A stretch of DNA of 64,000 nucleotides, taken from Antedon mediterranea (lineage: Eukaryota > Animalia > Echinodermata). The DNA lies in contig NC_092676.1 of assembly GCF_964355755.1 (NCBI RefSeq), positions 8,347,888 to 8,411,887 on the forward strand, in the 5' to 3' direction. Shown piece by piece: positions 32,420 to 64,000 of the stretch; position 1 is the first letter of the stretch; each line of letters opens with the position of its first letter. The notes beneath the pieces were generated by a model. The model saw nothing but the letters and a program-made list of their open reading frames with translations, was not told where the DNA came from and did not search any database. The translations under genes were made by a program, and so were the position numbers.

Positions 32420-33150
32420 CTAGGCCCTACCTATTGTTGGCCTAGGCTAGACTAGCTAGGCTAGGCCTAGGCCTAGGCCTACTAGCTAGGCTAGTAGTAT
32501 TAAATTAGTAATACTTAGTAGGCCTGGATAGGCCTAGCCTGGTAGTAGGCCTATCCTGTGGAGCCTAGCTTCTCTATACAAGCAAGGGTTTATTTGGTGG
32601 TTAATAGATCTGAATTATAATAATATAAACCAAATTACAGAATGTTACGCTTTCCTCCTCCTCCTCTCTTTATGTTTTGCCTGTTGTTTTTGTCACATGT
32701 GGTTTGTTTGTTTGACACGCACGCCCTCTTTGGTCATAACAAAATTAATATTTTGACATTTTTAATACAAAACAAATTAATAAATAGGATGTCTACAGTA
32801 ACTATAATATCTAATAGGCGCCTTCAACTTTCACGATTCCTTTCACTAAATCATTATTCTATGTATACAATAAAATAGGTAAAAAAACTGTGTAAACTCC
32901 ATATGTCACCGAAATTTGATATTAATTTTGTTACCAATCCCTGTGTTTATTGTTTTTGAGGTATCATCAATATGCACCGGTAAAACAATTACTTTGTCGA
33001 AAACTGTTCACGAAAGAGACGATGTACCATTTTTTTGGAAATTATGTAACTAAAAGTGCGTAGACCTATTGAGTAAAATGAATGAGGATAAGTTGCCTAT
33101 TATACTTACCGGTGTTTATTTTATAAATATTGTGATACCGTGGCAGCAAA
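32420..33150. promoter_or_regulatory. Probable divergent promoter / 5' UTR region between HPS6 and the metalloprotease gene
   Basis: Head-to-head gene orientation. TAGGCCTA-rich tract split by the MULE (23880-24122 and 32420-32570). Candidate minus-strand 5' UTR exon with a donor near 32637-32657. Inference only. Confidence 0.4.
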
Positions 33151-36100
33151 ATGACACTAATGATACAGATAATTTGTTTGTTTTTAGTTCACGTAGGCCT
33201 AAAGTTTGTATCGTTACATGAAACCAAAGGCCTAGTACATCGAGAGCTTAACTGTGAAGAAGAATCGGACTGCAAAACCTGTATCACGGATTTGTTTAAG
33301 GCAACCTTAAACAAGTGGAAAGGTTCTGGTGATCTGCAAGAAAAAACAGGTTATAGGCATGCTTTAGTTGAGTTGCTTTTTGTCTTTGATTCCACCTTTC
33401 AAAAACAATTTGAGAACAACTCCAGACGTTTAGAACATATTGTTCGTTGGCTAGTAAACAATGTAAGTAACTTACAAAGTTGCAGACATCCATAGTCTGG
33501 CTTTCAACATTTTCTGAAAGAAAATTGTTAGTTACACAATTCTTCAGACATCATGGGCATCATCAATACATTAGAGAAATTGTAAGAGTGCGCCATACAA
33601 AGATCACAATATACAATATGTATTTCGACCTAATTATTATTAGTAAAGATTAATATTTTGGAAAACATTCATGTGTACTACTTGAGTTCAAAATACAGTT
33701 TCCTGATAAAAAAAAAACTCGACTGGTGGACTGACATAAGAAGGATAGAGTACTGACAGACGCACCGCCCACCGTATATCCAATTTTTTTTTTGCATTTT
33801 TAGCAGAACGGTTTTTTGATACATTTTTTTACCAGAAGGTTGACCAAAATACTGAAAAAGTCTGCATTTGACAGGCATGTTAAATGTGATCTCTGTTACA
33901 TTTAAATGTATGTACATTTAAGTCGAATAAGAGGCATTTGTACTGGTGTCTAAAGTGTTTTTTTTTCTCTTTTTTTCATTTAAAGATGAAGACGATCTTC
34001 GAAAACTCTACCCTCGCCAATCCAAATTTAAGTGTTAGACTTGTAGATGTGATTCTAGCGACAGATTTGATAGCTAACAAGACAGATGAATTGGTTTGTA
34101 TAGGCCTAATCATTGTATTAAAATAAATGTACCCCGATGAAATCCATAGACTTCTAAATAAAGATCACTAACTGCCTTTAAGGTGACCAACATTGAATTT
34201 ATTGGTCTTCAATAAGACAAATTCTTTCAAGACACTTTACTAAAGTTAATTTGACAAAAACAGTGTGATGTGCCAAAATATGGTAGTAATATTACGTCAT
34301 CGTGTCCATATGGGCACATCACATTTTTGTCACATAAAGTTTGATAGTGTAGACAGAGCTATACGTTTGCCTCTCTTTACCAGGAGTACCTGGTAGGATC
34401 AATCACTGCAACATTATGGGAGTAGTGTTCCATAGGTATTGGACCCAATGATTGAGAACGTAGTTTCCCCCATTACAAGGAGTGTGCAGTGGTTAGATTT
34501 AAGCTTGGTTTCCATGACGCAACGCAAGGTGCACATCAAGTTGACAAAAATTACTTGGGCTAAATAATATTAAGTAATAATAATAAGTGTTTACTTTAAT
34601 TACAGAAATTAACTACAAAGTCAAGGAGATTGCATATTTCTAAAAGAAAATATGTAGATGGACACGCCGTATTAAAACGTTACATATCTACTTTTAACAG
34701 ACTGGCCATCAAATTCGACCATTGTATTATTTTGACCAGGTAAATGCCTCTAGTGTGAGTAAAGTGAAAGCGGATAGGTTGGTTATTAACCCACAATCAT
34801 AATTGATAATTGATTGCGCGTATGCGACCAACTTAACCGAATAAATAACTAAATCTGAACGGGCCCTAATCGTTTGGAGATAGACTTAAAAAACGTTAAA
34901 TGATTTGACTGCACAAGACAAACTGTGTTATTATTTCCCAACAGCTAAGCTCATGTTTTCAGAAACCGAGTCTTCTAACGACGATAATCCATATAGTGTG
35001 ATAGTGATTTGAACCATCATCGATAACATCATAAGATTAATTTTTTATTTCATGCCTCTAACATAGTCTTGATCTTTGGAAGATGGAAAGTCGTAGAAGT
35101 AGGCCTATACAAAGCGATATTGATGGTAGGTATAGTTTAACATGAATTTAGGTTTTCCTTTATTCCGAATATGATAATAACTGTCTGTCGATTTGGGATC
35201 TCACTGAAAAAAATACAGGCGATTGATTTGATCTATATACTTTAACTCCATTTCAATCGTCCAATTTTTTGTCTTGTAGGTTGTAGCTACCAATCATCAA
35301 CTTGTATGTATGAACGATTTTCATTGGTCGAATATTCTGAAGATCTGTACATGCTTTTGCGCACATGTTTGCATGAATTAGCGCACGGGTAAGTTAAGTT
35401 GAATGAAGTAAACTTTGACCTAGGCGTTATTCTGGTCTTCGTATTTGTACCTAATCGAGACCTGAGATTGTTGTTCTCAGTCAAAACCATTAGGCCCGTT
35501 ATTCCTGGACTATCTCTGGATTTAGTCGGTAAAACGGTATTCATGAAAGGAGGCCTAGACTCAACCTGGACTAAACCTGTACTAAAATCTGCAAAATGTT
35601 GTCCACCCCAAAGTTAGGCCTGGACTAAAGATAGTCCCCTTTGAATACGGGCCATAAATTCTAACTTTTAAAGTTTTAGGTTTATAAGCTCTTTGCTTGT
35701 CTGCCACCAGTGGTTGTTGTTCTTTCTTACAGACTTGGCGGATATCATGACGGAGAGTCAGACGTGCCATTCAGACGATCTCTGGCCAATCATTGCCATC
35801 CACGTGATGGATTCATTATGGGCATGCCTATTGCAAATGGGTTTGCGTCAAACTTCCTTAAATTTTCAAATTGTACTTTAGAAGATTTTTCTTTGTTTTT
35901 AAGGTTAGTCATAGTATTTCATAGTATATTTCATATTGTGATAAAAGCATGATTAATGCTTATAATAATAGATTTTAAATCATAGCTGAGATGTTACATC
36001 AGATCATATATAGTAAATTTGTATATTAAATAAGCATGCTTGGTTCACATGACGTGACGCAAGGGTGTACGTGCAAGTGAGTTGACCAATCACAAGCGAC

Positions 36101-36256: not shown

Positions 36257-39200
36257 AGTGAAGAATATACTGGCAAATAAAGCTAATGCTATTAAGGTAA
36301 TTTGTAATTACAAACATCAATTTAGAATTCACACCGGGCTAATGGCAAATCAAATTACTCAGATGCCAAGTTGGAGCAGTGGGCTGCTTAAGTTGAACTT
36401 TATAATTTCACAAACAAATTAATTATTAAAATCGACAGAAATGTTGTAAATTCTATCGTAATGGTGAAATATATATAGATTTATAATACGTTCCGTATTT
36501 ATTTGAATAAACTCCCCCACAAATAAACGCACACAAAAGAACATCGTTTGAAATAAATTCCCCCTAAAATAAACCCTGAAATAAATGCCCCGCCCCTGCC
36601 TACACAAACAATCTTGTATTATAACACATTTCTATTTGTAGTAGAATTCTTTGACTTCCATGATTTACAATTGACCAAACATTTTGATACGGTGCGTTTA
36701 TTCGAATAAATACGGTACGTTTCTAAGCGCTTGCAGCGGCGTCGGCGCTTCATACAGTAGTATCAAAGAGCACTAGACTAGATCTCTGGGAAATAACTAC
36801 AAGTTCTTAAATTTAAAAAAAAAAGCAACAATGTAAATTAAAACAAAGACAAGAAAATCTGCTTAGTAATACGGTACATATAAGCAGAAGTCTATATTTT
36901 CTATATTTTTTTTTTGTAGTTTAGACCTATATTTCCCATATATGTTATACAGGTTACATGGCATTTAGTTAATAATATGAACTAGAAGATATATGTTATA
37001 AAGCCGCTTATTTCTACATTTTTCCAATTAAATAAGTCTTATTGTGATTGGATCGTCGGCTACCATGTGACGTATTTGTATGTTAGTAAGACGCAGGTCA
37101 TTATGGTAATTTAGTCATAACAACAACAACAGTGTTGTCTCTTGAAGAAAAAGACAATACTTACAGTAATATTACAAGGTAGTCTGTCATGTTAGAGCTT
37201 TGTTGCATAAAGGCCACACGTGTTTGTTCCTGTCTGCTCCTTCTGAACAGTTTAGCCTGGCTGATAGATGAGAGAGTAATTCATGCATACATTTTGGCCC
37301 GTAAGTATAGTTTGTATCTGTGCTTACATCTCTGTTTCATGGTAGCCTATAAAGTACATTATATACCGTGTGTAGTAGGCATATAATAAATATAAACGTA
37401 TGTGTTTAAATGCAATGTAAATCGAATCAGTCTTATCGATTCTCCTCATTGATATGGTAAACCTTAATACTTATAGTATTGAGTATAAATTATGTGCATT
37501 TGTAAATAAAAACCAACGTTGCGTTAATTAAAATAGAAACCTTGTACAGAAAGGAAACCTTCTTGTATACGTTCTCTCAGTTTAAAAAAAAAACCAGCGA
37601 ATTTCAGTAACCTAAGCGTACGCGAGTGTATCCTTTGTGTAACATGAAGGTAATAGTGTTCACTACGAGCTTACGCACAATGGTACCGTAGGCCTACATT
37701 TCTTATACGATGAAATTTGTGAGAGCAGTTAAGCACGAATAGTATGCCACTGTATGCGGAATATATTATACTCTTATATATATGTATACAAAATGGAGAA
37801 AAGCACTCGATGAATATTTGATTGAAAGCCGCCGGTTACAATTCATATATTTATCACACATACGAAATAGTTACCTACCATGTTATGTGTCGTATTATTA
37901 GACAAGCTTAGGCCTATAGATTTATGTATACAAAGGTAGAGTGTAGACAGCTTGGATTCGTACCCTATTCTGATACTCTACTTTGAGAGTAAAAAGGATG
38001 AGGGAGGCTGAAACGACTGCTATATCCAATTGACGTAAAACATGGAAAATAAAATGGTCTGCTAGTAAATTACTAATTAAACAGAAGATTCCTAGTTCGA
38101 CTCTCGATTGGGGGACTTTTGAAACTGTTTCATTTTAACGTTTAATATTGATTTACTTCAGTATACTAGGCCTGTGTTTCTCTATTTCCGTTATACTATA
38201 TTTCTGTCATTTGAATATGAATATTTCTAAAGCACGAGATGCTTAGCTTTGTGACAATTTAAATGTCGAGCCGTTTCTGTAATCAAAAATATTGATTTTT
38301 TATGTTGTTCTAATTTTCTTTGTCGCTTTTTCAATACATCATTACAAAACACACATTATATCCACAGCTCCTATATCAAAATAGTGAATAGTCCACGATT
38401 AATGCAATTATGATAGCTTAACTCTGCCTGGTCCTTAGACCTCTATACTATATTGTGGGAAGATGAAATTAATATCACAAGCCTACCACAATGGTCTAAA
38501 GATGACTAAATTAATTCTCTATCTATCTGTTCAATACAATTGTGAAATGAAGGTTTCTATTTTGGCGTTTCATAATTCGAAAAAAAACCTCAAGGTTATG
38601 TAATCTAGATGTGTTGTCCTTGCGTTTAAAAAGATTGTTTTCGGCATTGTAGAAAAAATAAAGAATTCGATGTTGTAAACACTTCTTCATAGTTAGGACC
38701 ATAACGATCAAAGATAAATATATAAACATACATTTTTCTTACATAAAATGAAAAAAAAAAACTATATGATAAATGATGTCTGATAAAAATATTATTTTTT
38801 AAAATTTCAATCAATCATGGCGTCATTTGATTGGGCGTGCAAAGATATGCATATGGTTATCCTACAGATCTTGAATGACAATTTGCTAATCCTTTGTTTT
38901 ATGTAAGAAAATTGTCTATCTAGTTATATAATAGTCGTATCGTCCTATAAATGGGCCTATACTACTGTGTTATCGTATTCTGCTGAAAAACGTTACACAA
39001 CAACCCGGCTGTTATAACAGTCACAGACGATAATGACAATTATAGGCCTACTGATCATGTTTTTAAACAAATAAAGGCATAGGTCTACAATAGTCCGTTT
39101 AAAGTAGTATAGGATATAGGTTCCATTTCTTATAAAACGGCAAAGCCTGTCCGGACGTAACGATTTACACGTGTAATGGTCGCGTGTGGTGTGAATTTTG

Positions 39201-41699: not shown

Positions 41700-44305
41700 A
41701 ACCAATATTGAAGATACAGATAACTCGAGATTTTAATCAGCCTTTGTGACGTCAAAATATTTATATGTTCCTGGAAACCAATAGACATGCAAGTATATAG
41801 CTATATACAAACAAAATTAGATAAGAGGACTTGAAATGTTATCATACAAACATAGGCCTATACTAAGAAATCAAATTGGTATTTTGACAAGTAATAATAG
41901 ACAATTTGAATTGTTGGAATTATTGAATTACAGTTTGTTTTATCACAATAATTGCTAAACCAACATTTTAAAAATAACCTAATAATAAGAATTGAAGATG
42001 ACCTACGCTAAACGTAGGTTTCGTACTCATCTCTTGACTGGGATTGTATATATACACTCATTATTATATTATTATTGTAGCTGCTGATTATACCTTGGTC
42101 AGTTGATTTGCCCTACTCTGACGTAATGTGTACTTTTGTACTTACTAAAGTACCTAGTAAAAGTACAAATTAGGTCAAAGTAGGGAAAAACATCTGACCA
42201 ATTATGCTTGGTTTCCACTAGAGACGCAACGCAAGGGCGCAACGAAACACAAGCGATGAATCATTCGAACTGTCGCTTGTCATTAGTCAATTCGCTTGCG
42301 TTGCGTCTACGTCCTCGGGTGGCGTCTCTAGTGGGAACCAAGCTCTACTCAACTCCCTGACAACGCACAAAGCTACTCCACAGTAGTTAAATACAATTAC
42401 AACCCTGATACTATACTACTGTACTACTATACAAAGCAAAGTTATCAATGTATTTATAGAAAGATCATACACTTGTTATAAGGTTTAAGTTTACAGGCAG
42501 AAATTCTCTCAAATAATTGGCAATATGCCTTCTCAACTGCGGTTTTCTTTTTTTTTCTAAAGCTTGATCACACTTACAGTACGCTTTTCATTGGTCAACT
42601 CGCTTGCGATGCGTTTTACCTCCTTGCCTTGCGTCCTAGTGGGAACCAATCAATCATGTTTTTTATTCTGAAAAAAATATTGGCCTAAAGCTTGGTTCCC
42701 ACTAAGACCCAACGCAAGGACGTAACGCAACGCGCAGTGATTTGACCAATCAAAAGCGATGGATTAATCGAACAATCGCGTGTGATTGATCAATTCGCTC
42801 TGTGGGAACCAAGCTTTAAATTACAATACAAATAGTATAAAAACACAAAAGAGTACAAAAGGCCTGCTAATTGTTATTGTTCTCATATAAAACAATATGG
42901 CAAGAGAAAATAATAATATCTATAGAAAATATCATTGTGGTAATTTATTATTTTCGAGATCTGGAAAAAGAAAAGGATCACAACTTCTTTATATGAATCG
43001 TAAGTATTTTCCCTCCATTTGGTACGCATATTATCATTTACGTTTGTTTGATATTAAATTTTATGTGAAGCCATAACTAACGATTTTCGATCTTTCAGTA
43101 GCATCAAAGTAATTATAAAGTACAAGGGTTTGTTTGTTAAAACGTAGGCCTTTATTTTCAGATGATAATGGCAACATTAATTATTATATTAACGTTGAAG
43201 ATGCACCGACGATGACAGGAGTGATGCGTAAATAGCGTTACCATGGTTATTCAAGATTGATTAGCGTATGCTGTGTTGTAAATGAATCAAATATTTTATC
43301 TTTTATGTTTCCAGGTGCACACCAACCGACAATTAAGCAAAATCCTTGAATGATAGCGGTGGCAACAAGAAACGAATACAAGTAACCATGGAAACCAGTT
43401 ATGCATACAATAGATAATGAATTTGTTGGGATATTGGTAGTTAAAGAGAAATACATGTAAATCATTATCTAGGATCAACTTGTAATGCTTCACTCATTAT
43501 AGTAGTACTATTGTATGGATCTATCTCTAGGAAGTATTAATTGTGCCTTAATACCTTGCAGCAGTTATAGATGTACACAAGAAAAAAATTATTTTCATAA
43601 CTAGACTACGCATGAAAATCTAGAATACGCCGTAAATCAATGATTACACGGAACTCTTTGACGTACCCGACATTTTACATTGCTTCAGAAATGATTACAA
43701 CAATTGATGTTCTTTGAAGAAAAACAAAGATGAGTATACCTGTTTCATATTGGATTTCGAATAATGGATTAACAACCTTCTTAAATGAAACACCTTATAC
43801 TACTATTTTGTAGGCAGAAAATAAACCTTCTGGCGCCAAACCAGTGAAACGTCATTGGCGAACAGGAGTTTACAACTCTCACAAAAGGGGCTTACATGAA
43901 AACAATAAGATGTTTGCAGTAGGACTAGTTGTTTTCAGCTAATTGTTGTACACGTAGAGGTTATTTCATTTGCAAGAGAGAACGATTGTCTCAGATTTTA
44001 TCATATAGAAATATTTATTTATAAAAACAAAAAATGATATGTAAATGTTTAGTGTTGCTGAACCTTTACAGAAAGTTCTGCAATTTTATCACATATTAAA
44101 ACGGTTAATAAAAATCAGACAATCCGTTCCAAAAGAGGAGAAACATAACAAAAGGCGTCGTGTCTGCCAAATGGTAATTCTGTTATTCATTATCGAAATG
44201 CTCAAGAAACAATGCCGGAAATCTAAATTGGTGACATATTACTTTGTCATTGACGTCAACAAAGACAAATCTTGGAACAGTAAATAAACTTTGGACAAAT
44301 GCAAG

Positions 44306-45397
44306 ATGAAAGAGCTATTAGGTATCATCTTCCAGATGATTGTTCTAATGACGTTATGGTTGATATCTGTTATTGGTAACTCGCTTGTGCTGACCGTTGT
44401 CTTTCGTAGCAAACGTCTTCAAAGCACCACCAATTATTTTGTCGTGTCTCTCGCTTTAACCGATATGGTGATGACGATTTTTTGTATGCCTTTTATTGGA
44501 ACCAGAATTGTGAGTCAGCAGTGGATCATAAAAGAAGCTCTTTGCAAATGGACACGATTTGTCGAATATGTTGTACCTAGCGTCACCGCTTTCATACTAA
44601 TTGCCATCTCAACTGATAGATTTTACACAATAATTTATCCATTGACTTTTAAGATAACTCGAGGCATCGCGAAGAGACTTATACTCTTAAGTTGGCTTTT
44701 TGCTGTTTTGTTATCCTGTCCATCATTCTTCACAACATACACGCACACTGACAGCGAAAAAAATGAAACCTTCTGTTCTATATGTTCAGCTGAACCTGGT
44801 GGAAGGTCTTTTATTTTAGGATTATTTTTAATGACGTATGTGTTTCCTGGGATAATGGTGGTTTCAATTTATTGCAAAGTGGTCAGTTATATATGGACGG
44901 TTGGTGGTGGTGCTCGAACGTTTCAAAGAACATCCAATACTATACCAAGAGCCAAAGTAAAAACCGTAAAAATGTTAATTTTTGTAACGATAGTGCACTT
45001 TTTCTCATGGCTGCCATTGTTTTTCGTTCAGATAACTCGAGCGTTTGATGAAGATGCTTGTGTTGTAAAGACATCTATGTATGTGGGTACAGTACTGTTA
45101 GCATATGCACCGAGTGCGTCTAACGTTGCCATATATTCTTATTATAACTCGAACTTTCGCCGTGGTTGTAAAGAAGTGTTTTGTATGTCGACTATACGAT
45201 GCCAAAGAGGAGAAACGTACGCCATAACAAAGGCATCACGGCTGCGAAAGAGCAACTCTGTTATACCATTATCGAGCAGCTCAGTAGAAACGGACGTTAC
45301 GAATTCATCGTACATTCGATTTGACAGAACTGCAAATGGTGATTGTAACATTGCTTGGCCATTGACGTCAACTGGATCTAACAACACGTATGTTTAA
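44306..45397 (+). CDS. GPR19: Class A orphan GPCR, GPR19 orthologue, single coding exon, 363 aa from the first ATG
   Basis: Seven TM segments. GNSLV...RSKRLQSTTNYFVVS, DRFYTIIYPLTFKITR, PRAKVKTVKM, YNSNFRRGCKEVFCMS and the C-terminal AWPL...NTYV match GPR19 as recalled. The ORF-track start at 44291 is TTG; the first ATG is 44306. Confidence 0.92.
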   Translation: MKELLGIIFQMIVLMTLWLISVIGNSLVLTVVFRSKRLQSTTNYFVVSLALTDMVMTIFCMPFIGTRIVSQQWIIKEALCKWTRFVEYVVPSVTAFILIAISTDRFYTIIYPLTFKITRGIAKRLILLSWLFAVLLSCPSFFTTYTHTDSEKNETFCSICSAEPGGRSFILGLFLMTYVFPGIMVVSIYCKVVSYIWTVGGGARTFQRTSNTIPRAKVKTVKMLIFVTIVHFFSWLPLFFVQITRAFDEDACVVKTSMYVGTVLLAYAPSASNVAIYSYYNSNFRRGCKEVFCMSTIRCQRGETYAITKASRLRKSNSVIPLSSSSVETDVTNSSYIRFDRTANGDCNIAWPLTSTGSNNTYV

Positions 45398-48299: not shown

Positions 48300-49070
48300 A
48301 TAATAGAGCTGTCTAATTGAGTAAGGACATTTTTTGATATTGTTAGAGCTTGTGAATAAAGCTTGCGTATACACCAACTCATTATTAGGCCTATCTTGTT
48401 TATTTATACGTTGTTGTAAAATGAAAATTAAACCAGATCCTTGCGGGGCTCTTGGTTCTCGAGTAGATTTTTTTTCCTCAGAGGCTTTACTTTCTCAGAA
48501 AACTCAAGCAAATTAGAGTTGATAACACTAGTTTAATTCTATTTTATCAAAGTATTATTCAAAGTATTTTATCTTTTAGCATTGGATGTTTTTATGGTAA
48601 CTTTACTGAAAATGATAAGAAAAATATTGAGAGACCACGTAACATTGCACAACGTATTATTAAAGCTGATCTAACGCCTTGTTCATTTATCTATGAAAAG
48701 AGTATTTAAAAAAAAGTAAACAATATTATGAAAGACCCCACTCATCCGTTACATTACTGTTAGGCCTATAACTTAAGTAGATCAGGCATTAGGCTACGAC
48801 CTCCAAGAGCAAATCTTTGGTAGAACTAGAAAATCCTTCGTTGTAAATAGCATTCATATTTTTAATTATAATGTAAGACGATAATGCAATTTTTAAATAG
48901 TTTTACATTTTTAACAGTTTTTTTATTTTTAACTTTTTATCTTGTATTTTAATCTGTTTTAAATTGTTGCAACGTTTTTTACGTTTTTTTTTTATTGTTG
49001 TTTTAATCTACCAAGCAAAGTGAATTTCCACTTTTATAGACAAATAAAATTTCTTGAATCTTGAATCTTA
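48300..49070 (+). mobile_element. Decayed LINE 3' end (Rex1/Babar-like)
   Basis: Remnant IMKDPTHPLH...LSRSGIRLR...RTRKSFVVNSIHIFN, T-rich 3' UTR, AATAAA and a (CTTGAAT)n tail. Confidence 0.65.
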
Positions 49071-49736: not shown

Positions 49737-50407
49737 TAGGTTTTGTATTCATTCAACCTAACTGACAATCAAGGGCCCCCCATGATGAGTTTTTTTAAAA
49801 AACCATATTTAATGAGGGTTATCCATCCAGCTATTGCTGATCATTTGGGACCCTCAGAGGTTCACAAGACAAACATATACACAAGATGCTCTACATAAAC
49901 AAAGTCTTATTACAAGTCTTTGGGAGTGGAGAATTTGGTCCTTAGAAAAAATTCTGACATGTGACAGAACTTGAACCCAGGACCCTTGGAGTGGTAGCCA
50001 AGCATTATAACCACTAAGCCTGAACTCCACTTCATGTTCTTATGATATCTGTCTGTCTGTGACAGTGGCTGTAGGTTTTGTATTCATTCAACCTAACTGA
50101 CAATCAAGGGCCCCCCATGATGAGTTTTTTTAAAAAACCATATTTAATGAGGGTTATCCATCCAGCTATTGCTGATCATTTGGGACCCTCAGAGGTTCAC
50201 AAGACAAACATATACACAAGATGCTCTACATAAACAAAGTCTTATTACAAGTCTTTGGGAGTGGAGAATTTGGTCCTTAGAAAAAATTCTGACATGTGAC
50301 AGAACTTGAACCCAGGACCCTTGGAGTGGTAGCCAAGCATTATAACCACTAAGCCTGAACTCCACTTCATGTTCTTATGATATCTGTCTGTCTGTGACAG
50401 TGGCTGT
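49737..50407. repeat. Tandem duplication of 335 bp, each unit carrying a minus-strand tRNA-SINE
   Basis: 49737-50071 and 50072-50407 appear identical by eye. Confidence 0.92.
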
Positions 50408-51209: not shown

Positions 51210-51451
51210 TACATATATAAACAAATCAGGCACAGAACATTAATTCTAAACCGCCCGGTGATATACTGAAATTTAATTAATTAATTTGAAACGATAAAGA
51301 TGAGGAAATCTGTGAGAATGAGAAAAAGTCGTACGGCGGAACAGCACTAGTCCTCAGCGTGCGTACAACTGAGGACTAGTGCTGTTCCGCCGTACCACGC
51401 TGAGAATGTTAAAGAGTCGCTATCCAATCGAGTTCGAACAATACCATGAAA

Positions 51452-51523
51452 GCCCCAGTGGTCTAATGGTTAGGACATCTGCATATCAAGCAGGCGGTCC
51501 GAGTTTGAGTCTCGGTTGGGGCG
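51452..51523 (+). tRNA. tRNA-like cloverleaf, anticodon ATC, copy 1 (T-loop TTTGAGT)
   Basis: Same as the 51816-51887 copy except one C>T change in the B box. Confidence 0.45.
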
Positions 51524-51815
51524 ACTTTTTCTCATTCTCACAGATTTCCTCATCTTTATCGTTTCAAATTAATTAATTAAATTTCAGTATATCACCGGGC
51601 GGTTTAGAATTAATGTTCTGTGCCTGATTTGTTTATATATATAAAAGTATCTCTTCTGAGATCCCGCCTCGTGAATAAAAATACTGTAAGATGAGGGCGT
51701 ATCAATTTGATCTCTGGTGCGCGTGCGTACAACTGAGGACTAGCGCTGTTCCGCCGTACCACGCCGAGAATGTTAAAGAGTCGCTATCCAATCGAGTTCG
51801 AACAATACCATGAAA

Positions 51816-51887
51816 GCCCCAGTGGTCTAATGGTTAGGACATCTGCATATCAAGCAGGCGGTCCGAGTTCGAGTCTCGGTTGGGGCG
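51816..51887 (+). tRNA. tRNA-like cloverleaf, anticodon ATC (Asp-like), probably repeat-borne
   Basis: Acceptor GCCCCAG/TTGGGGC, D-stem GTCT/GGAC, anticodon stem TCTGC/GCAGG with loop ATATCAA, T-arm CCGAG-TTCGAGT-CTCGG, followed by ACTTTTT (Pol III terminator-like). Confidence 0.55.
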
Positions 51888-53075
51888 ACTTTTTCTCATT
51901 CTCACAGATTTCCTCATCTTTATCGTTTCAAATTATATACATATTATATATGTATGTACTCAGGTTGAAATTTTCAGACCGTTTTTATTTATATATGTAT
52001 GTATATATATAAATCCAAAGGCAAATTACTGAAAAAATGACAATGCTGTGGGTATCAGTGGCTGGATCTCAATGGAGATACAAAAATAAAAAGCGAAAAG
52101 CTAAATTGTATGTATATATATATATATGTTCATTAAGCGATCATTCCACCAAGTCATTTATTTCTTGTTCTGAAAAATATTGCGATTTCATAGCGAACAC
52201 GCATAACGTATTCATTTATCAACATGACATGCTGCAATTGTATCGACGAGGAAAATCAAGCAAAGTTAGCCACGTACGTCAGATCCTGGGACATTGGACA
52301 TGGTCGGCTCATAGCGATTTCTACACTATTTTTGCTGGGTGAATTCGCTTAACATGTTGATTTCTGGTGGATAATGTCTTGTTCTTCGGTATAAGAAAAT
52401 AGATGTATTAACTGCATTAAAAATCTAAAGGAAGAAGAAGTACACTTTGTTATTGATGTTAGAAGTTAGACTAAAACTATAATACTCTGGCCTAAAATTC
52501 GTTCGCTTTTTCAGTTTTTATTCTAAACTTGAGTGTGACGACGGTAGGATCTATTCAACTATACGATGAATACTTAATTCATGACACGGCTGCGGAGTTC
52601 TATTGTTAGTAAGCTTGTTGGTATAATCATAGTGAAGCATATTGTCCATTGGTTCAAGTTTTAATAAAATCTAGAGAACACTTTGTCGTATTTTTTTTCA
52701 TTTAATATATTCGTCTCATTCAAGCATTCGTCTCATTCAAATACATATACAGTAATACAAAGAAAAACAAAGAGACATGGAATCCAAAAAGTGAACTTAA
52801 TCAACTATTAAGTGGACTACATTTATCTACTTATCAATCAAAAGATCTATCCACTAAGGCTCTGTCTGCACTATAAAACTTTATGTGACAAAAAATGCGA
52901 TGTACCCATGGACATGTTGATGTCATATCACTATTGTAGGCATATCACTACCATATTTGGGCACATCACACTTTTTTTGTCAAACTGGTTTGATAGTGAG
53001 ACAGAGCTTAAGATTCCTTCCAATATACAATTACATAATGTATTACCTTAAATTGTAAGGTTATTTGTGAAATTG

Positions 53076-56000
53076 CTATTGTTCTCGTCCGGTCATTGCC
53101 CTTTTTACTGCACTCCTTAGTCGCATTCTAAGACCCTACAAGATAAAGAAAGTTCATTAAAAAGAATCATGTATTGAAACATATTATTTAAAGATATATT
53201 ATCCCCCTAAAAAAATCATTTTTTAAACATTTTTTGTTGAATATATCAAATAATAACACTTTGACCAAAAACTTATTTTCCTGAAAATCAGAAAATGGTT
53301 TTTGCTTACAATTAACCGTTTCTTTTGATTTTTTTAAAGCTCACTATGTCGGTCGGATAGTCGGTCGGTCGGTAAACACTAACTCAAATTTGAGCACGCG
53401 ACTGCAGCTATGTATTATGGCCTTGTTAAGTGAAATAATTATTTTTGTTGATTTTTTTGTTTACAGAAGTGAATAACTTTTTTATAACGGAAAAGCCTAT
53501 TCCAATTCTGATTTTATCAATCTTTATTTTTCATGTTTTTGGGGGACAATACATCTTTAAAACTACTGCAAAACAAATATCAATATTATAGGCCTCCAGG
53601 CTAAGGGCTAAACAATACTCACCCTTGATCTTTCACGACGTGGCATGGTGCGTGATCCCTGTGTAGTAATAAACAAATCGTAAATATTTTGTCATTGTTG
53701 ATCTTAAAATATCATATCGAACAATAACAGAAATTAATGATATACTTGTGAAAACATTTTCCCTCTGGTTTCGATTAGTATAATGATATGTAGGCCTACT
53801 TTATTGATTGTTAACCAGTATAAATTTAAGTTGACGAAACTGTCTTAAAACGTATGTTAAATTTTATTATCAGGAAAGAGTGAAATTGGTTTTATTCTTC
53901 CCTGGGTTTACAATCATTGAACTACATATCAAAACCACCACACTTATTTCGTTTGTACATATTACCGATATAGGGCACCCATGCATCATTTTCAATACGA
54001 TATATTATTTTTAAAATAGTAATAGTCTTAGTTGAATGGTCTTTAATTAGAGACATTGTTTATCACACTAAGAGCGAGAGACTGACACAAATAACAAATC
54101 TCCGATTGTTTTGAGTTTTTTTGAAAATATTATATACCTCGCAATCCTGTTTGAATGCATGAAAAATAAACAATACGATATTTTAAAAAATGCCTTGAAC
54201 ATAAATAGTTATACAAAATGACATGATGACGACGCATGGTGATTGTGTACTAAAAATAAAAGTATTAATGAAACCAAATACAATCACAGCTTCAAGAGTG
54301 AACAGAAAACATTTTTGCAAACACACTCAATCAAGATTCGACTTTTTTTTCTTAAACATTGGCGAATTACATTTTTATGCAAAGGCGGAAATCATGAATA
54401 TGCATGAATTAATTTATGCATATATTAAGACAAGACACAGATAACAAAACGTTGCAAGAAATAATAGAGGAACAAACCTATGGAACGCCTCCTCTGCTTT
54501 CAGTAAATGTGAACTGAAAGCGTTTCATACCAACCAGGCTGTTCAGTAAAGCGTGGTTCCCACTAGCGACGCAACACAAGGACGTAACGCAACGCAAGTG
54601 AATTGACCAATCACAAGCGATGGCTTATTCGCTTGTGATTGCTAACTGTCTATAACTTCGCTTGTCATTGGTTAAAACGCTTGCGTTGCGTTTACGTCCT
54701 TGCGTTACGTTCTAGTGGGAACCAAGCTTAAGTAACATTCTGGTTTGATTCTTCATTTAACAATCATTCGCAAAGCTATCATATTTGTCGAAATAGCAAA
54801 AAATTAATTTTATTATTCTTCTCCGACATTGTTGTATGGAGAATTCCTTCCCCCAATGTTTTATGTGTTTTCAAATACTTATGTCCAATGTGTGTAAGCA
54901 TTGTTGGTTTTAGACCGGGGATAAAGCTTGGTTCCCACTAGAGACGCAACACAAGGACGTATAACGCAACGTAAGTGAGTTGACCAATCACAAGCGATGG
55001 ATTATTCGAACTGTCGCTTGTCTTTGGTCCCGTTGCGTTTACGTCCTTGCGTTGTGTCCTAGTGGGAACCAAGCTTTATCTCCAGACTTCCCCCTGTAGG
55101 CCTACTGTACATTACACACGAATTGTATTAAGAAATTCTAATAAAATGTTCTTATGAAATGTATACGAAAGCACATCACATAGATAGGCTACTATACCAT
55201 TAAGCTCTGTCTACACTATCAAACTAGTTTGACAAAAAAGGTGTGATATGTCCAAATATGGTAGTGATATGACATCATCATGTCCATATATGGACACATC
55301 ACACTTTTCTGAATAGAGGTTGACTGTAACTTTGATTTGAAAAACAAACAGAAAGTTACAACAAGGGATTAATTATACATTAATGGTAAATATGGCATTT
55401 CTAATACACATTTCACACAATTTTAAGATTGTAAGAATTATAGTTATATTGGTCCGGCTGAGCAATGTTTAACGAGTGGTCTTTAATTAGAGGGAGATCT
55501 GTATTATGGACAAATTAAAATAAATTATCTTACTTACCCTTGGGTGTAGCTATTAAAAAATGGAAATAAATAAATTGTATTAAAAATGTAGATGTACTAT
55601 AAATTATGGTTTATGATAATTGTTAATAACTACTGTGGGGTATCGATACGTTAGGGGTTGAGTAATTGGTCAGTTACAGTAAAAATTACGTCACAGTAGG
55701 TCAAACAGCTGACCAATTACTATAGTTGAGTTGGTATACAAAGATATATGCATATATATATATATATAAACACAACATGCAAAGAACATTATATATATAT
55801 GAATATGCATAATGTATGCAATGATAATGATAATCATTATGATATGATATTTGTGAGAATAGTGATGATTTAATAATTAATTCAATACTTACTCGACACG
55901 CCTGATAAGTTGAAATAAACAAAATCAAAATACATTGTATTAGAATATAATTTGTTAATACATGAATACAATACAAACTCAATTGTTTAAAGATACGTGT

Positions 56001-59000
56001 ATGAACCAAAACAAAATATTATTACACAAACTGTGTTTATTTTAAGGTATAAACTAATCAACTTACCACCTGATAATTAGTAGAATATGCATGGAAAAAA
56101 CAAGAAAAAAGGAGTTAATTATGAAGTTAATTATTTAACATAATAAAAGCATATCTATTTTTTTGCAAATGATTTTTTTTAATCGATTAAGAATTGTGAA
56201 GTAAATAAACTTACCCCACGTCCCTGTAGATGCCAATGAAGCAAGATTAAATATCAAAGAAAAAAGATTAAGTTTGTATTTGTGTTTTTCTAAATTTATT
56301 ATAATCTAATTAGTATTCTAATTAGTATCCTATGATAAGAAAACTAGAGATATATTATTATAAAACTAGATGGGCAACTCCAACCCAATCACAATCTACT
56401 TATATGTTTACAGTAAAGAAACCGTATCAAATTTTTACAATTTTGCAATTTTACATTCCTTACGCTCTGTTTACACCATCAAACTAGTTTGACATAAAAG
56501 TGTGATGTGCCCAAATGTGGTAGTGATATGTCGAAATATGGTAGTGATATGACACATCACATTTTGTAACATAAAGTTTGATATTGTAGACAGAGCTTAC
56601 ACGTGACAGTTAGAATACACGACATCACTAATACTAAACGCTTGCTCGTAAATAGATGGACACAGAAGAAAAAATAAAATGAGGTCAGACTGATATGTCG
56701 ACATGTGACATGTCAGTACACATAGAAAGGTCAACAGTATAAGTACATTTTAATCTAGGTTTATCAATTCAGGAGAATAGGACAACGTGAAATAAACACT
56801 ATAATACTGTACACTCAAAACATGAAAACATTCAGAATTTACATGACAGAATTAGATCAAAGTAATACGGTTTTACGAGAGTCAACATTTCCAAAATGAA
56901 AAAAAACAATCATAACGTATATACAAATCAGTTTTAACATTTAAAAAAATAAACCACCATTGGCCATATTGTAGGAAAATATCTATGAGAAAGTCTGTTT
57001 TCATTCGATTTTGTAAAAATGAACCGTTTACAGTTACTTTTAACGCGAACACAAAATATACCATGTAAACACTTTTTAAATGTTTTAATAAAAAATGTAA
57101 TTGAATTTGTGTAGTGCGTGAGCTTCGTCCTAGCTCAAGTATGTCGCACATATATTTACAAAAAAATTATTATCCGAGAAGAATAAATGGAAGCATTTGT
57201 TGTTATCTGCCTGTGCGCCCTCTATCAATGACAGAAATACAACTTGAGATTACCGAAAGTATAAGATAACATAAAGTAGTACTGAATCATTCCTTTAAAC
57301 CTGGAATTTTTGATTTACATTTGAGTTGTTTTCTCAAAGGTCAGAAAACAACAAATTGCAAGTATTTTTCAACTGAGTAAAAGGACAATTGTAGAATTAT
57401 CGACCGATAAACATGTAAACGGCACGATTTCGAGTCAAGTGATCTAAAATGCTATGAACTCCTCATGTTTGCAGCTTGCCCTACTTTTTAGCTTCTTCTT
57501 CGTCAACATGATAAATGTAATCAATTAAATCAGCGATGTTTCTTGCTGAGAACAAATTGCACATTTGAAAAGTGTTGACCCTCAGCAGAAATACAAAACA
57601 TGTTTTTGCAACATTCATGTCTGTACTGTCTATAATACTACTATTGTTGTTGTTTATTTGAAAAATCGGGTACTTTATTCGTGAAAGTATATTTTATAAA
57701 GAGCGCGCCATTTCTAGCAGTGCTTACTCCGTTAAAAGAATATGATTAAAAGACGTATTTATACCAGGACGATAAACAATTCAATATACATTTCGTACAT
57801 AAAAAAAAATTCAATTGTATCCTAATATTCTTCATTCGTTTTAAAAGAGCGCTTATGAAAATTTTACACGAAGTTAACGTTTCCACACATATTAAACTAT
57901 AATGAATATCGATACAGTATAGACCTTTTTAAGAGGACACCTTCGATCATAGAGTTGTTACCTGAATTGGGATTGACTGTATTAATACATTTCCATGTTT
58001 TCCTTTTCGGGAAAGTCTCCCCTTAATAAGGGTGTTCCAAAAGGAGGGATTCTATTGTACTGTACGATAATATTCTTAAAATTAACTATTTTTAGAATTT
58101 ATTTAAAGAAACTATGGTTTTGGCGATTAATATTTCGCAAGCAAACACTGTCGAAATAACGATAAATACAATATTTAGCCCACAGGCTGACCACATGCAG
58201 ACATCGATGACGGTTAATGACGACGGAGGCTGTGGCGTGTTTACTTAAACGGACTGGGCTTACAATTCTAATTAAATATTAAAGATGTATTTGAAATGAC
58301 CATCAAGCATACAATGAAATTTGTTGATATACTTACGATATTCTTTGTTCCGCAAGAGGCAAAAGAAAATAAAGTAAATAAGAAAGTCACAGCCATTAGT
58401 AATAATATCGTGGTTGTATTATATTTCTATCAATTGTCTACGTATCTCGCGTCAGTAAAATACCAATAATATTAGTTCATTTCAGTTTGTCATTCTTGGC
58501 CACATAAGACAGGGCTGGCGACAAACTCAATCGATATCAACTGTGTGACTGGACACAACACAATTACCTGTAAATTATCAACACAGTCACTGATATCAGT
58601 TGTTCTGCAATTGATGTGTTTTACCTAGAAAAAGTGGCAATTAATACTGTGTATTTTAGGAGGCTCTAATCGTTGTTGTTCCTGTTTTACTGTACTATGA
58701 TTAGTAGAGCAGTACAAATGATAATCCTACCCATAGAATATAGAAAATTACTTCGATAAAGCCCTTGGTAATATGGTTGTTGTTGAGGAAGCTACGGATT
58801 ATTAAATGCATGTAGTTTTCTTATGCTGGCCTAAAGTTGGCATATGATTATTAGTGTTATTCATTCATTCATTCATGTTTTATTTCGGAAAAAAATTTTT
58901 TTCTCATTCTCACAGATTTCCTCATCTTTATCGTTTCAAATTAATTAATTAAATTTCAGTATATCACCGGGCGGTTTAGAATTAATGTTCATTGCCTGAT

Positions 59001-59036: not shown

Positions 59037-62000
59037 CCAAAGGCAAATTACTGAAAAAATGACAATGCTGTGGGTATCAGTGGCTGGATCTCAATGGAGA
59101 TACAAAAATAAAAAGCGAAAAGCTAAATCAAAACGATAAAGTAAACAGCCAGAAAAGTTAGCAGAGCTTTCGGGCAACACTAGCCCTTCATCAGTGCAAG
59201 TGAAGGAATAAAAAAAACCTACGCCACATAGTCACATGGTTAGAACAATAGCTTCATCCATCTACTATGTAGATTGGATGAAGGAAAAGAAAATTCATGA
59301 ATACATTACCATATATATATTATTACCAATCGTTACTTTTGTGCTAAACCATTAAGTATATAACGTTATTTTGTCTCTGTAAGCCTGGTTCCCATTAGAG
59401 ATGCAACGCAAGGACGTAGACTCAACGCAACACCCCGCAACGTTATACTAGTAGGAACCAGGCTTTGGAATCAAAATGACGTTCTAAACCTTATGGTTCA
59501 GCACCAAAAAACAAGCTTAATATATTAATAATTAACTATAACAGTGCAAGCTGTCGTGTTCCCTACGCAGCTGTTGAGTGGAAAAGTCACTCAGAACATA
59601 TGAGCATGCGTATAATTACTATTACAACCTAATAAGCTGCATAGTCGAGTGATAACCGACCGCGTGCTTTCAGTAGAGTCTTTAAAAATCCCTCTCTGAA
59701 TCCACTCTAAATTGCTAAGAAAACAACCATTGGTGACAGGCCTTCTGAACCAGGACACCCACTGATAATCAACCCCAGCCATTGAGATTGTCTCTTCCGG
59801 GCACACGCCGCATCCATTACCCTACATCCACCCCCTCTTATCCTCCTACTTGTCATTTTAATTATCGGCCTAACACCACTAATTTAAACTCATGGTACAC
59901 ATTAAAGTAAATGATTCTGTATATCAATGAATGAACTCAATCTTTGATTTTTATTGGGGTCCATTATCCTATCCGTACATCGTCCTTGGCCTTAACAAGT
60001 CCAACGACTTTACGAAGACTCCCTAGAGGCTCATCTTTACTCGCAGGTGATTCGGAAAGCAAAGGGCTTAGTTTGATGTTACCACTTCCTAACTCATCTA
60101 CCTACTCAGTATTAAAAATAACGTATACATTTTTGGCATGCGGTAGATATTTTTCCCAGAACCAATAAATACGCATTACTTTACTAGGGCTTTCTAACTA
60201 TCTGAGCAGATTTAGATAAATAATTTAACAACTTGTGATTAATCCAGGCTCGTGCACAATTGCATAGTTAACACACTTGCTATTGGGCTCATTTGAGACT
60301 ACAGAACTCATTTAAGATGGTCTAATGATTGTTTTTAATGCTCCCATCACAGCAAAACACTTTTGCAAATTTGTTGAAAATGCCATTGTTTTGTAGGTTA
60401 AAAATCGACTGGGTATAATACGGTAGGCCTACTGTAATTCATCAATGAAAATAAAAAAAAAACTATAATTTATTCTTATTTGACATAATAAAAATAATTA
60501 AAATTAACTAATGATCCAGAAATAATTAGGAATTAAATAATATTTTAGTCCCGAATATCTATCTAAATGTTAGTGATACGGAACTCAAGAAACAGAACAC
60601 TTTTTTAGAATTCGAGGCCCGACCTTTGTCATTTTCAACAATTTTGAGTTGAACTCATCTTTAAAGTAAATAAAAATGTTACCAAGTTCAAACGATTGGT
60701 TAAAACATACTGTACCAGCCATACAATGATAAAAATTGTCATGCTTTCATTTTTAGTAAAGTAAGCCATCAGATTATTGAAAATAGTTAAGTAGATCGAA
60801 ACATTAAATTCTCTTTCTAAGTGTCTTGTTTTATTTGAAATTTAGTCTATTTAGTGAATAAAATTATTGATGTTCTTGGCAAATTCCTTTCTATAGACAA
60901 ATCTTAAACGTGGGGTGTGATGATTAATGGAAATGGAAAGTTGAGGAATGAAAACGTCTTCCTTCAACAATTACGTCATTCCATGATTTATTTTTATGAT
61001 TTATTTACTGACAAATAAAATAGTAATGATACATCAAGTATAATATATTATTACCATTAATTATCACAGTATTTCAACTAACCATGCTCTAGTTCAGTGT
61101 TTTTTTAGAATCTTTAATCTCATTTTTATTCAGAATTTCCTAAAATAATCACTCTGAAATTCTTTTACAAAAAATATGTATTGATTCTAAAGATTTTAGA
61201 TTAGTACAAATACCGTTTTATAATTGGTCAGATATTGTCCCACTCTGAGCCAATTATTATCTTTTGTTTATTAGTATTTTTCTGACCTTCAAACTTGGAA
61301 TTATTGAAAATATTGTCATAATTTTCGACATATTCTCGATAAATTCAAATGGGTCTCAATATTATCTTTTCATTGTCTTTTATATTTATCAAAGTTATGT
61401 TTTTAAATCGTCGTCTTTATAAGGTAGGATTATTCAACATTTTTCAAAATTTCTAAATTAATTCTGCTGATTCTAAGGTATTTAGTTATGTTTTTCTAAA
61501 CGGATGCTTTGAAATAATATTGTTCTTATCAGATTTGTCAAAATATGAGAATATTGTGCTAACGACGTTGGTAAGATGGCATTATGAACATTTTGATTGC
61601 ACGAGCTGTGGACGCAAAAACGCTACAAACAACGCAGCAACATTTATGGACGTCTGTGCATGTACGGTATATACATTCGGGCATATATTCCTCCCTGAGT
61701 TTATAGCCTCTCTAACACGAGATTTATAGAATAATGACAACTGTCAAAAGTACGTTTTTAATAAATTTTTTTCGTTTTTTATTGGCATTTCGTTACTTAT
61801 TTTATATATTTTAATTACTTTTTTAAATGTAAAACAACGAATTCAATGTTTTTATTACAATTACTTTTAACATTGTAACATATAGCCTAAACGAGAGGAA
61901 AAAATATGCTTAAAAATATAATATTTATAACAGAGTATGATAATAAAAAAGTGGGACGAACCCACACAAGACAAAAAAAAAAATACATTCGGGCGTTGCT

Positions 62001-63259
62001 TGCTTCCAAGTGTTTGGCAAATTCTGAGGATATACTCTAAGAAAACAATACATACTACCTGTTATTTAATCGTCTATGACATTATAGTTGTTAGATTAGT
62101 ATTGGTTAAACTTAGGACTGTTCGAACAAGATGTTTTGAGTTCAATTGTTAACATAATAGTCTAATGTGCTCGAGTTTATATGAAAGCTTGAACAAATCG
62201 TAAGAGAATGAATACTTTTCTATAAATAAATCGAGAAATGATTACTTACATCGGATTGTCTTTTTGATGTTCTAAATAAATCATCAGCTGATAATAAATC
62301 TTGATTTACATTGGAAGGTCTCAACACTCTAGTTTGTACTGCAAATAACAGAAAAGTAATAGTAGAAATATTAATTATGTCTTACTACCACCCATTTGCT
62401 CTAGTTTCATGTCAAGCCTTCGATTCCTGGTCCTCGCTCACCGGCTACTTATGGCTAATGGTGATGATGGCTTATAAATATCATTAGGGACAAACGTGTT
62501 TAGAACAGATAATTAGGACACCTATTCTGTTCCTTTTCTTCTTCTTCCCTGTCTACATATTGTCGTAATCATCCCATGCCAACTTAAGCACACTTTTAAC
62601 AATCATTTATTTAAGTTACGGTGCTTTTAAAGATGTGTTGTCCCCCAAAATATGAAGATTACTAAAAAGACCATTTTGTAGTTTGAATGTAGTTAATCTC
62701 TTCAGTAGAAATAAATTCAGTCAAAAACCCATTGTCTGTCAGCCAATTTGACTATACAGTATTTTTCTTTGAATTACAGTTTTTTTCAGGTAAATAATAA
62801 ATTTTTCCCGATCCTATTTTTTCTCAAAGTGAATAACTAATATGGGACATTAAAATGGAATGTTCAACAAACTAATTGAAAATTATTTTTCAAGGGGGGG
62901 GGGGGGGGGGAGACAATATATCTTTAAGAGAAATGGCGCTCTGAAATATGATTAGTAAATATAAGGAAACTGTTTCACGATTTATTCCAGTCTATGTTTT
63001 TATCTTAATGTCTTGTGTTCTTATACATTTATGTTTATAGAAAATAATATTTTATAAATTCATATTAGCTGCTAATCGTACATGGTCAATGATCTCATCT
63101 TGCTAAGATGAAAATCAAACACATAGCGCCTTAGTTGTTATAGATAAACACACACACATTACTATGCCCTCGGGTAAAATTGATTTACTGTGTACCATGA
63201 TACTGTATTATTTTCATCAACAAATATTCCTTTCTAAGTTTACTCGATTGGAAAATGCC
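53076..63259 (-). CDS. 3' part of an unidentified protein-coding gene with a microexon array (5' end probably beyond the window)
   Basis: Candidate exons: 63259-63196, 62338-62250, 60101-59979, 58624-58568, 58342-58337 (6 nt), 56223-56215 (9), 56069-56067 (3), 55901-55893 (9), 55549-55538 (12), 54146-54138 (9), 53658-53623 (36), 53135-53076 (TAG). Joined, they give one open frame: GIFQSSKLRKEYLLMKIIQYHV-QTRVLRPSNVNQDLLSADDLFRTSKRQSD-VDELGSGNIKLSPLLSESPASKDEPLGSLRKVVGLVKAKDD-VKHINCRTTDISDCVDNLQ-NI-GRG-V-ACR-LHPR-DCE-GSRTMPRRERSR-GLRMRLRSAVKRAMTGREQ*. No family recognised. Confidence 0.6.
59030..59300 (-). mobile_element. Penelope-like element terminal-repeat fragment between (TA)n tracts
   Basis: Contains the minimal hammerhead typical of PLE terminal repeats; a truncated copy lies at 52011-52106. 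Confidence 0.55.
59161..59197 (-). ncRNA. Minimal type I hammerhead ribozyme motif
   Basis: Minus strand GCA-CTGATGA-A-GGGC-TAGTGTT-GCCC-GAAA-GC-TC^TGC: intact CUGAUGA and GAAA core, stem II, a short palindromic stem III and stem I GCA/TGC. Confidence 0.75.
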
Positions 63260-64000
63260 CTGAAACAATATTAATATCTATTGATATACCTGTGAAATAC
63301 GATACAACTTTATGTATTAGGTTCCAAGTTTAGTGTAATTTATTGGAGAAATTTTACATTATTCAATATATCAACCATTATATGAAAATAATATATATGT
63401 GTTCGGTAAATATTAATTAAGCTACATATTTAAGAGGTTAATGTACTTGTTCACCTGTTGAATGTGTAAGCGAAAATGATATTATAATTAATATTATCAC
63501 ATTTTTTTTTAATAGACACTGTTTTGTATAAAACATGTATAGAACCCGTCATTATGATTGTCTGACTCCTTATAAAACATTATTTTTTTCCTATCACGTT
63601 AAGACAGAAATCATGAATAATTCATGAGATTATAATGTTTTTAACATATACTTTTTAGTAGATTTTGAAATAGCATGTATATTCCTATCTGTTTGTAGCC
63701 GTTTACCCGGAGCGGTACCGTACATTACTTTAAATAAACTTAATTATCTCGTTAAAGTTATTAATTATGATAATTTTCTATCCCAATCATCATATCATCA
63801 ATCACCAATAAGCTAACACAGTCACAATAATATTTAAAATTGTTAAGTTTCAGATCGCGTAGTCACGTTTTCAGCGATAAAGATAAACAAGACCTAAAAT
63901 ACACTCTTGTCAGATTTAAGTGTTTAAAATATACATGGATTTAAAAGTAAATCTAAAAATAGACACGCAGTGATATGTGTACTAATGCTCTTAATGCTAC

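Follow-up and report, generated by a model that had tools for sequence, protein, structure and literature searches.

The 64,000-nucleotide window analysed here, from the crinoid Antedon mediterranea (assembly GCF_964355755.1, contig NC_092676.1, positions 8,347,888 to 8,411,887), is animal DNA with 32% G+C and carries on its minus strand a run of very short exon-like units within a predicted gene. The gene model has 11 coding exons, extends from 63536 to 53076 and encodes 123 residues in a 372-nucleotide (nt) frame without an internal stop. Six consecutive units of 3-12 nt, microexons 1 to 6, are located between exons of 57 and 36 nt and form a cluster that is far beyond chance, with five of the six being strong. 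The best reading of the sequence is that the gene is probably a lineage-restricted precursor of a secreted peptide, with a core encoded by symmetric phase-0 microexons. The exons of the model, in window coordinates, are as follows.

63455..63536, minus strand: predicted exon 1 (82 nt, from ATG to donor, ending in phase 1); likely signal peptide by a hydropathy heuristic.
62250..62338, minus strand: predicted exon 2, of 89 nt, entered in phase 1 and left in phase 0; short pro-region, strong pyrimidine tract, GTAAGT donor, one of the three frames open.
58568..58624, minus strand: predicted exon 3 (57 nt, symmetric, phase 0); Cys 63 and Cys 71, donor 8/9, open in phase 0 only, TGC at -15.
58337..58342, minus strand: microexon 1 (6 nt); AAG acceptor, AG-free zone of 82 nt, branch-point-like CTAAT at -57, TGC at -19 and -12.
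56215..56223, minus strand: microexon 2 (9 nt); AG-free zone of 64 nt, TGC at -20.
56067..56069, minus strand: microexon 3 (3 nt); AG-free zone of 83 nt, TGC at -22.
55893..55901, minus strand: microexon 4 (9 nt); Cys 84, AG-free zone of 74 nt, without TGC.
55538..55549, minus strand: microexon 5 (12 nt); AG-free zone of 45 nt, without TGC.
54138..54146, minus strand: microexon 6 (9 nt), the weakest unit; Cys 91, donor GTATAT (6/9), TGC at -13.
53623..53658, minus strand: predicted exon 10, a symmetric phase-0 exon of 36 nt; rich in Arg, with Arg-Arg at residues 99-100, donor 8/9.
53047..53135, minus strand: predicted last coding exon; 19 residues, basic, Lys-Arg at residues 115-116, stop TAG at 53078-53076.

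The six units and their 57- and 36-nt flanks are present on the minus strand where the original prediction had placed them. The lengths that it gave (6, 9, 3, 9, 12 and 9 nt, each between AG and GT) are all multiples of 3, and the units are exon-like. Its donors, GTAAGT in five units and GTATAT in the last, are borne out, it was correct in finding TGC between the pyrimidine tract and the AG in four of the six, and the two Cys-bearing units that it mentioned are units 4 and 6. The microexon bases are 58% G+C (28/48), as against 32% around them (P=1e-4). The AG-free zones upstream of the units range from 45 to 83 nt (P=0.0015 for the minimum and 0.018 for the mean, relative to 719 matched sites), while those of the four flanking exons range from 20 to 69 nt, so that the contrast between microexons and flanks is modest. 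Branch-point-like motifs precede five of the six units, and all six GTAAGT hexamers on the minus strand between 52 and 64 kb are donors of the gene model. The introns between units measure 145-2113 nt, so joint inclusion of neighbouring units is possible. A further donor lies 4 nt past microexon 5 (55534, minus strand), and its use would shift the frame.

Splice-like motifs of this size could in principle arise by chance in A+T-rich intronic or intergenic DNA. The rule used in the chance test requires an AG acceptor, a pyrimidine tract, a length of 3-15 nt and a GTAAGT donor. It is matched five times in a 4,909-nt interval and four times in the other 123,091 nt of the two strands (Poisson P ~8e-7, for an interval picked post hoc). 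Sequences of 128 kb were simulated 150 times with an order-4 Markov model. The best cluster that they give in 5 kb contains three matches of any length (1/150) or two of a length divisible by 3 (5/150); five are never reached, and no simulation gives more than three such units in 5 kb. Six lengths picked blindly would all be multiples of 3 with a probability of (1/3)^6 = 0.0014. Exons of 30-150 nt that have a strong donor, a length divisible by 3 and an open phase 0 are matched three times in the whole window; the two matches on the minus strand are the 57- and 36-nt flanks. A repeat scan of the window places the units outside local repeats, and they are neither parts of repeats nor tandem copies. 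Even though unit 6 and three further candidates are at chance level, the G+C content, the AG-free zones and the flanking exons provide independent support for the array. A chance origin is very improbable, and at least five of the units are, judging from these signals, very probably genuine exons. Tandem duplication of intron-exon units was considered as an origin for the array and rejected, with only the T-rich upstream tracts being alike and the downstream flanks unrelated.

The model contains nine consecutive phase-0 introns and eight consecutive symmetric exons. When the array is read in phase 0, its third-position G+C is 0.36, as compared to 0.70 and 0.64 in the other phases. Since the neighbouring GPR19 gene has a value of 0.37, phase 0 is favoured, and readings in phase 1 and phase 2 are disfavoured by the same measure. 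Alternatively, the units could be spliced but belong to a gene that has decayed, codes for no protein or uses a different frame, such as phase 2 from an inner ATG or from a 22-nt exon 2, with the 57-nt exon skipped. Phase 2 has an open stretch of 33 codons through the array, a possible inner acceptor of exon 2 at 62271 (minus strand) would give the 22-nt form and change the phase, and no protein record was found for the peptides of exons 2 and 3. However, eight consecutive symmetric exons, an open frame of 123 codons and a signal-like exon in the same phase speak against such a gene, as does the third-position G+C (0.36-0.37, where the other phases have 0.64-0.70), and this explanation is distinctly improbable.

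The identity of the host gene had been expected to lie in sequence beyond the window. It need not be sought there: upstream of the array are a first exon that likely encodes a signal peptide and a second exon of 89 nt, downstream of it is a stop, and the model fits inside the window from its first exon to that stop. The predicted product of exon 1 has a basic n-region, an 11-residue hydrophobic core (mean Kyte-Doolittle value 3.2) and a polar c-region, and two in-frame stops sit just upstream of the ATG. It is the sole signal-peptide-like frame among the 22 frames in the window that run from an ATG to a 7/9 donor in phase 1, and the most hydrophobic of the 110 with a donor of at least 6/9. For the 1.65 kb searched, simulations predict 0.002-0.18 frames of this kind, a value that varies with the cut-off. 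In a control set of 447 other acceptor-like T-rich sites an equally hydrophobic frame is present at two (cut-off 2.8) or 15 (cut-off 2.3). In exon 2, the Lys-Arg pair at residues 53-54 is followed by Gln. The 69-residue part after this pair contains four Cys (63, 71, 84 and 91), two of which are encoded by microexons (units 4 and 6), and the 32-residue tail after the last Cys has 11 basic and three acidic residues. The predicted precursor has no clear amidation signal. In the last exon a possible donor is found 29 nt past the stop, and AATAAA is present downstream at 52522 and 52162. Taken as a whole, this layout suggests that the product is likely to be a secreted precursor.

In an alternative that builds on the original prediction, the units would be neural microexons dependent on the eMIC domain (Srrm234) and would encode part of the tail at the C-terminus of a longer protein that is not secreted, with its 5′ part beyond the window and 63454 as an acceptor rather than a donor. 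The eMIC (Srrm3/4) signature itself is weak. The long AG-free zones support it, whereas the TGC signal is weak: it is found in units 1, 2, 3 and 6 (4/6, against 175/737 background sites, or 24%; P=0.03), is missing in units 4 and 5, and also occurs before the 57-nt flank. UGC reportedly lies between the tract and the AG in 74-79% of SRRM3/4 targets in human sets (10.1101/2024.09.17.613571), and fly eMIC targets have long AG-free zones (10.1101/2021.02.24.432780); the occurrence of both features here is in favour of the longer protein. So are the site at 63454, which has 62 nt free of AG before it and is followed 8 nt later by a 6/9 donor, and the bilaterian-ancestral origin that the latter source describes for eMIC (10.1101/2021.02.24.432780). 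On the other hand, a conserved neural protein of 71-2000 residues would be expected to match the exon peptides and none did, two of the searches covering lengths up to 2000. The ATG frame of exon 1 is also more signal-like than nearly all of the 447 control sites, with one or two exceptions, the TGC enrichment is weak, and neural regulation would be compatible with a secreted product as well. A longer, non-secreted protein is therefore an improbable host, while neural eMIC control of the units, as far as their flanking motifs indicate, is possible but doubtful.

Homology searches were made with the two short peptides of exons 2 and 3, and a family that is visible only at full spliced length could escape them. 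The exon-2 peptide, padded with in-frame intron to 40 residues, has no match among six candidates of 71-2000 residues, and none among 1.84 billion representatives, in the ESM Atlas or in the PDB. The exon-3 peptide, likewise padded with in-frame intron, has no match in its one candidate of 71-2000 residues and none in the ESM Atlas. In Pfam, nothing matches the frames of exon 2 or exon 3, which were two of the 148 frames scanned (the 146 others came from 156 long frames). The gene is not recorded in the protein database as a protein of 71-2000 residues containing these exons. An Rfam scan gives no match within the microexon gene. In the crinoid neuropeptide catalogue PMC9793003, no matching precursor is present in supplementary file 2 or was found by motif searches of its seven files, in which long cells are shortened. 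A resemblance to somatostatin-2, with a 12-residue Cys spacing and Gly-Arg-Gly, fails on the core motif, its position and the intron phase (PMC8851493, PMC7536072), and the starfish precursors Arnp18, Arnp21 and Arnp25 differ in Cys number and layout (PMC4772807). A full-text search, whose coverage excludes most subscription papers, found no paper that joins microexon, neuropeptide precursor and signal peptide. Among the matches listed for microexons and echinoderms, no such gene is apparent from titles or the beginnings of abstracts.

The number of products depends on how the units are combined. The claim of up to 64 in-frame variants holds in that none of the 64 inclusion patterns gives a stop, but free 64-way mixing is doubtful. 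The peptide has two Cys without any microexon, four with all six and three in 32 of the 64 patterns. In secreted peptides, an unpaired cysteine is as a rule disfavoured. Because half of the patterns carry one, the units are more likely to be included in a coupled or block-wise manner than to mix freely. The same even Cys number at full inclusion would suit a gene in which the microexons are constitutive, so that one four-Cys peptide is coded in tiny pieces with no isoform diversity. The five consensus GTAAGT donors and the lack of TGC in units 4 and 5 point in the same direction, and aphid bicycle genes are a precedent for secreted proteins assembled from many small exons of the same phase (10.1101/2021.09.24.461719). 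Constitutive exons, however, have no need to be multiples of 3, as every unit here is, and the tract-TGC-AG layout of four units and the long AG-free zones are those of regulated microexons. Since tolerance of skipping would select for symmetric exons, optional inclusion is supported, and wholly constitutive use appears unlikely.

The full reading, a predicted 11-exon secreted precursor of 123 residues in which six symmetric 3-12-nt units are probably optional, is given an even chance on the basis of the sequence. Exon 1 would encode a signal peptide. A convertase would then cut after Lys-Arg 53-54, leaving a Gln that could cyclise, and the basic tail would be trimmed at Arg-Arg 99-100 or Lys-Arg 115-116. 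The cysteines would be disulfide-bonded, and the mature product would be extracellular, as a signalling (neuropeptide-like) or defence peptide. The microexons would be recognised through their strong donors and far-upstream branch points. Inclusion would occur mostly in blocks, with both Cys units (4 and 6) together, rather than in 64 free combinations, and, depending on splicing, the mature peptide would be either a short form with one disulfide or a longer form with two.

Several observations weigh against this precursor with optional microexons. Unit 6 (54146-54138) is at chance level, since donors of 6/9 are expected to give 0.9-1.6 chance matches in the interval. At the same donor level there are further units on the minus strand, of 4 nt at 58267-58264, 8 nt at 56754 and 6 nt at 56398, which are missing from the list of the original prediction; those of 4 and 8 nt would shift the frame, yet they score like unit 6 and are, like it, at chance level. 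The signal peptide is called by a hydropathy heuristic whose thresholds were chosen after exon 1 was seen, T-rich DNA yields hydrophobic frames, and the donor site of exon 1 is also acceptor-like, for an 8-nt exon. The peptides of exons 2 and 3 have no homologue in the database, although the GPR19 protein of the same window is present there. Half of the inclusion patterns give the odd Cys number noted above, and constitutive exons can be symmetric too. Exon status, isoforms and tissue are all predictions from DNA alone.

The surroundings of the gene contain mobile and repeated sequence as well as coding regions. The GPR19 orthologue is a single-exon open reading frame at 44288-45397 (plus strand), with 79% identity to that of Anneissia japonica and at most 50% to those of other echinoderms, which marks the window as crinoid, and it can serve as a synteny anchor for locating the microexon gene in other crinoids. 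High-copy inverted-repeat elements resembling miniature inverted-repeat transposable elements are located at 52850-53010, 54547-55310, 56460-56600 and 59379-59460, in introns of the microexon gene or just downstream of it, and overlap none of its exons. Among the sequencing runs, X1, tentatively taken as RNA, yields only unspliced contigs of low depth with none over the 57-nt exon, and X2-X4 yield contigs almost identical to this DNA that may be its source; these results have no bearing on expression. The allelic differences listed in contigs from sequencing runs X1 and X3 are all outside exons, in a number too small for a constraint test, and the X1 contig has no listed difference in microexon 1 or its splice dinucleotides. 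Elsewhere in the window, a Mutator-like element at 29668-31543 (minus strand) has Pfam matches to PHD, FLYWCH and MULE transposase in three successive frames. An HPS6 N-terminal domain match at 21335-21646 (minus strand), just below the Pfam cut-off (E 6e-6), is probably an exon of an HPS6 gene, and a weak Mab-21_C Pfam match is found at 38526-38738 (minus strand). A 119-residue frame at 33136-33492 (plus strand) has a hydrophobic start and no Pfam match; by eye it resembles the front of a secreted metalloprotease. An ALKBH8_N Pfam match (E 1e-8) is located at 48467-48706 (plus strand), and such matches are often found on retroelement remnants. Two tRNA matches at 51357-51935 are inside a 215-nt, 99% duplicate with flanks like those of short interspersed nuclear elements, and a lone 5S rRNA match is at 17656-17773. 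A perfect 300-nt tandem duplicate with a 335-nt period at 49737-50371 is either a recent duplication or an assembly artefact.

Each of the known systems that the predicted gene resembles differs from it in distinctive ways. Predicted crinoid neuropeptide precursors are defined by a signal peptide and dibasic sites (PMC9793003), and the present model has a signal exon predicted from hydropathy together with Lys-Arg 53-54, Arg-Arg 99-100 and Lys-Arg 115-116. Like the echinoderm precursors as a group (crinoid PCNP1-20; the somatostatin/allatostatin-C types SS1 and SS2), it combines a predicted signal peptide and dibasic sites with a Cys-containing peptide and a length of about 120 residues. The starfish precursor ArSS2 shares a Cys pair 12 residues apart with a Gly-Arg-Gly motif. 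Unlike SS1 and SS2 in the same sources, however, the crinoid sequence lacks FWK/IWK and FxP, its loop is not C-terminal (32 residues follow the last Cys) and its first intron is in phase 1 rather than phase 0. RPS24 is reported to use several consecutive microexons in combination, but there the three exons, of 3, 18 and 22 nt, encode the end of a non-secreted ribosomal protein and are not uniformly symmetric. Aphid bicycle genes are alike in being lineage-restricted, in encoding secreted proteins through many small internal exons of one phase and in being missed by sequence searches; they have phase-2 exons, about 17 exons on average and CYC motifs, in contrast to phase 0, 11 exons and no CYC motif here.

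SRRM3/4-dependent microexons are usually single insertions in larger neuronal proteins, whereas here six units follow one another in a small precursor that is predicted to be secreted. The two share lengths below 30 nt in multiples of 3, long AG exclusion zones and, in four of six, UGC, as the reports describe (10.1101/2024.09.17.613571, 10.1101/2021.02.24.432780).

The micro-exon genes (MEGs) of schistosomes are similar in that a small predicted secreted protein with a signal peptide, a putative one here, is encoded by a run of tiny symmetric exons permitting variants that differ by a few residues (PMC4350168, PMC4015677, 10.1101/2023.06.21.545858). The six 3-12-nt units with their 57- and 36-nt flanks, all predicted to be multiples of 3 in phase 0, are tiny symmetric internal exons of the kind that characterises MEGs, and the composite gene SmVAL6, with ordinary exons followed by a run of small ones, has the closest layout. 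The comparison with schistosome MEGs that the original prediction had raised does not extend to membership. MEGs belong to a platyhelminth parasite and have 10-20 short exons, whereas the present gene is from a free-living deuterostome and has 6-8. Exons of up to 12, 36 and 57 nt make up 13%, 23% and 38% of the 369 coding nucleotides, as against up to ~75% in MEGs; dibasic processing sites flank the array, and no homologue was found for the peptides of exons 2 and 3. In its way of working the gene would parallel a schistosome MEG, but it stands outside that group.

A more speculative proposal is that a MEG-like gene evolved independently in a free-living echinoderm, in which the combinatorial splicing of six exons of one to four codons, perhaps specific to neurons and driven by eMIC, determines ring sizes and Cys number. 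One gene would then give a library of processed, disulfide-bonded cyclic peptides for signalling or defence. Runs of symmetric microexons in small secreted proteins have been described mainly in parasites and plant-feeding insects (MEGs and bicycle genes), and the regulated neural microexons of bilaterians as insertions governed by eMIC. A convertase-processed, Cys-linked peptide whose predicted mature region contains a microexon run would unite the MEG-like and eMIC-type patterns; residue-level splicing would offer a route to diversity in peptide ligands, and crinoid peptide catalogues would be shown to overlook such genes.

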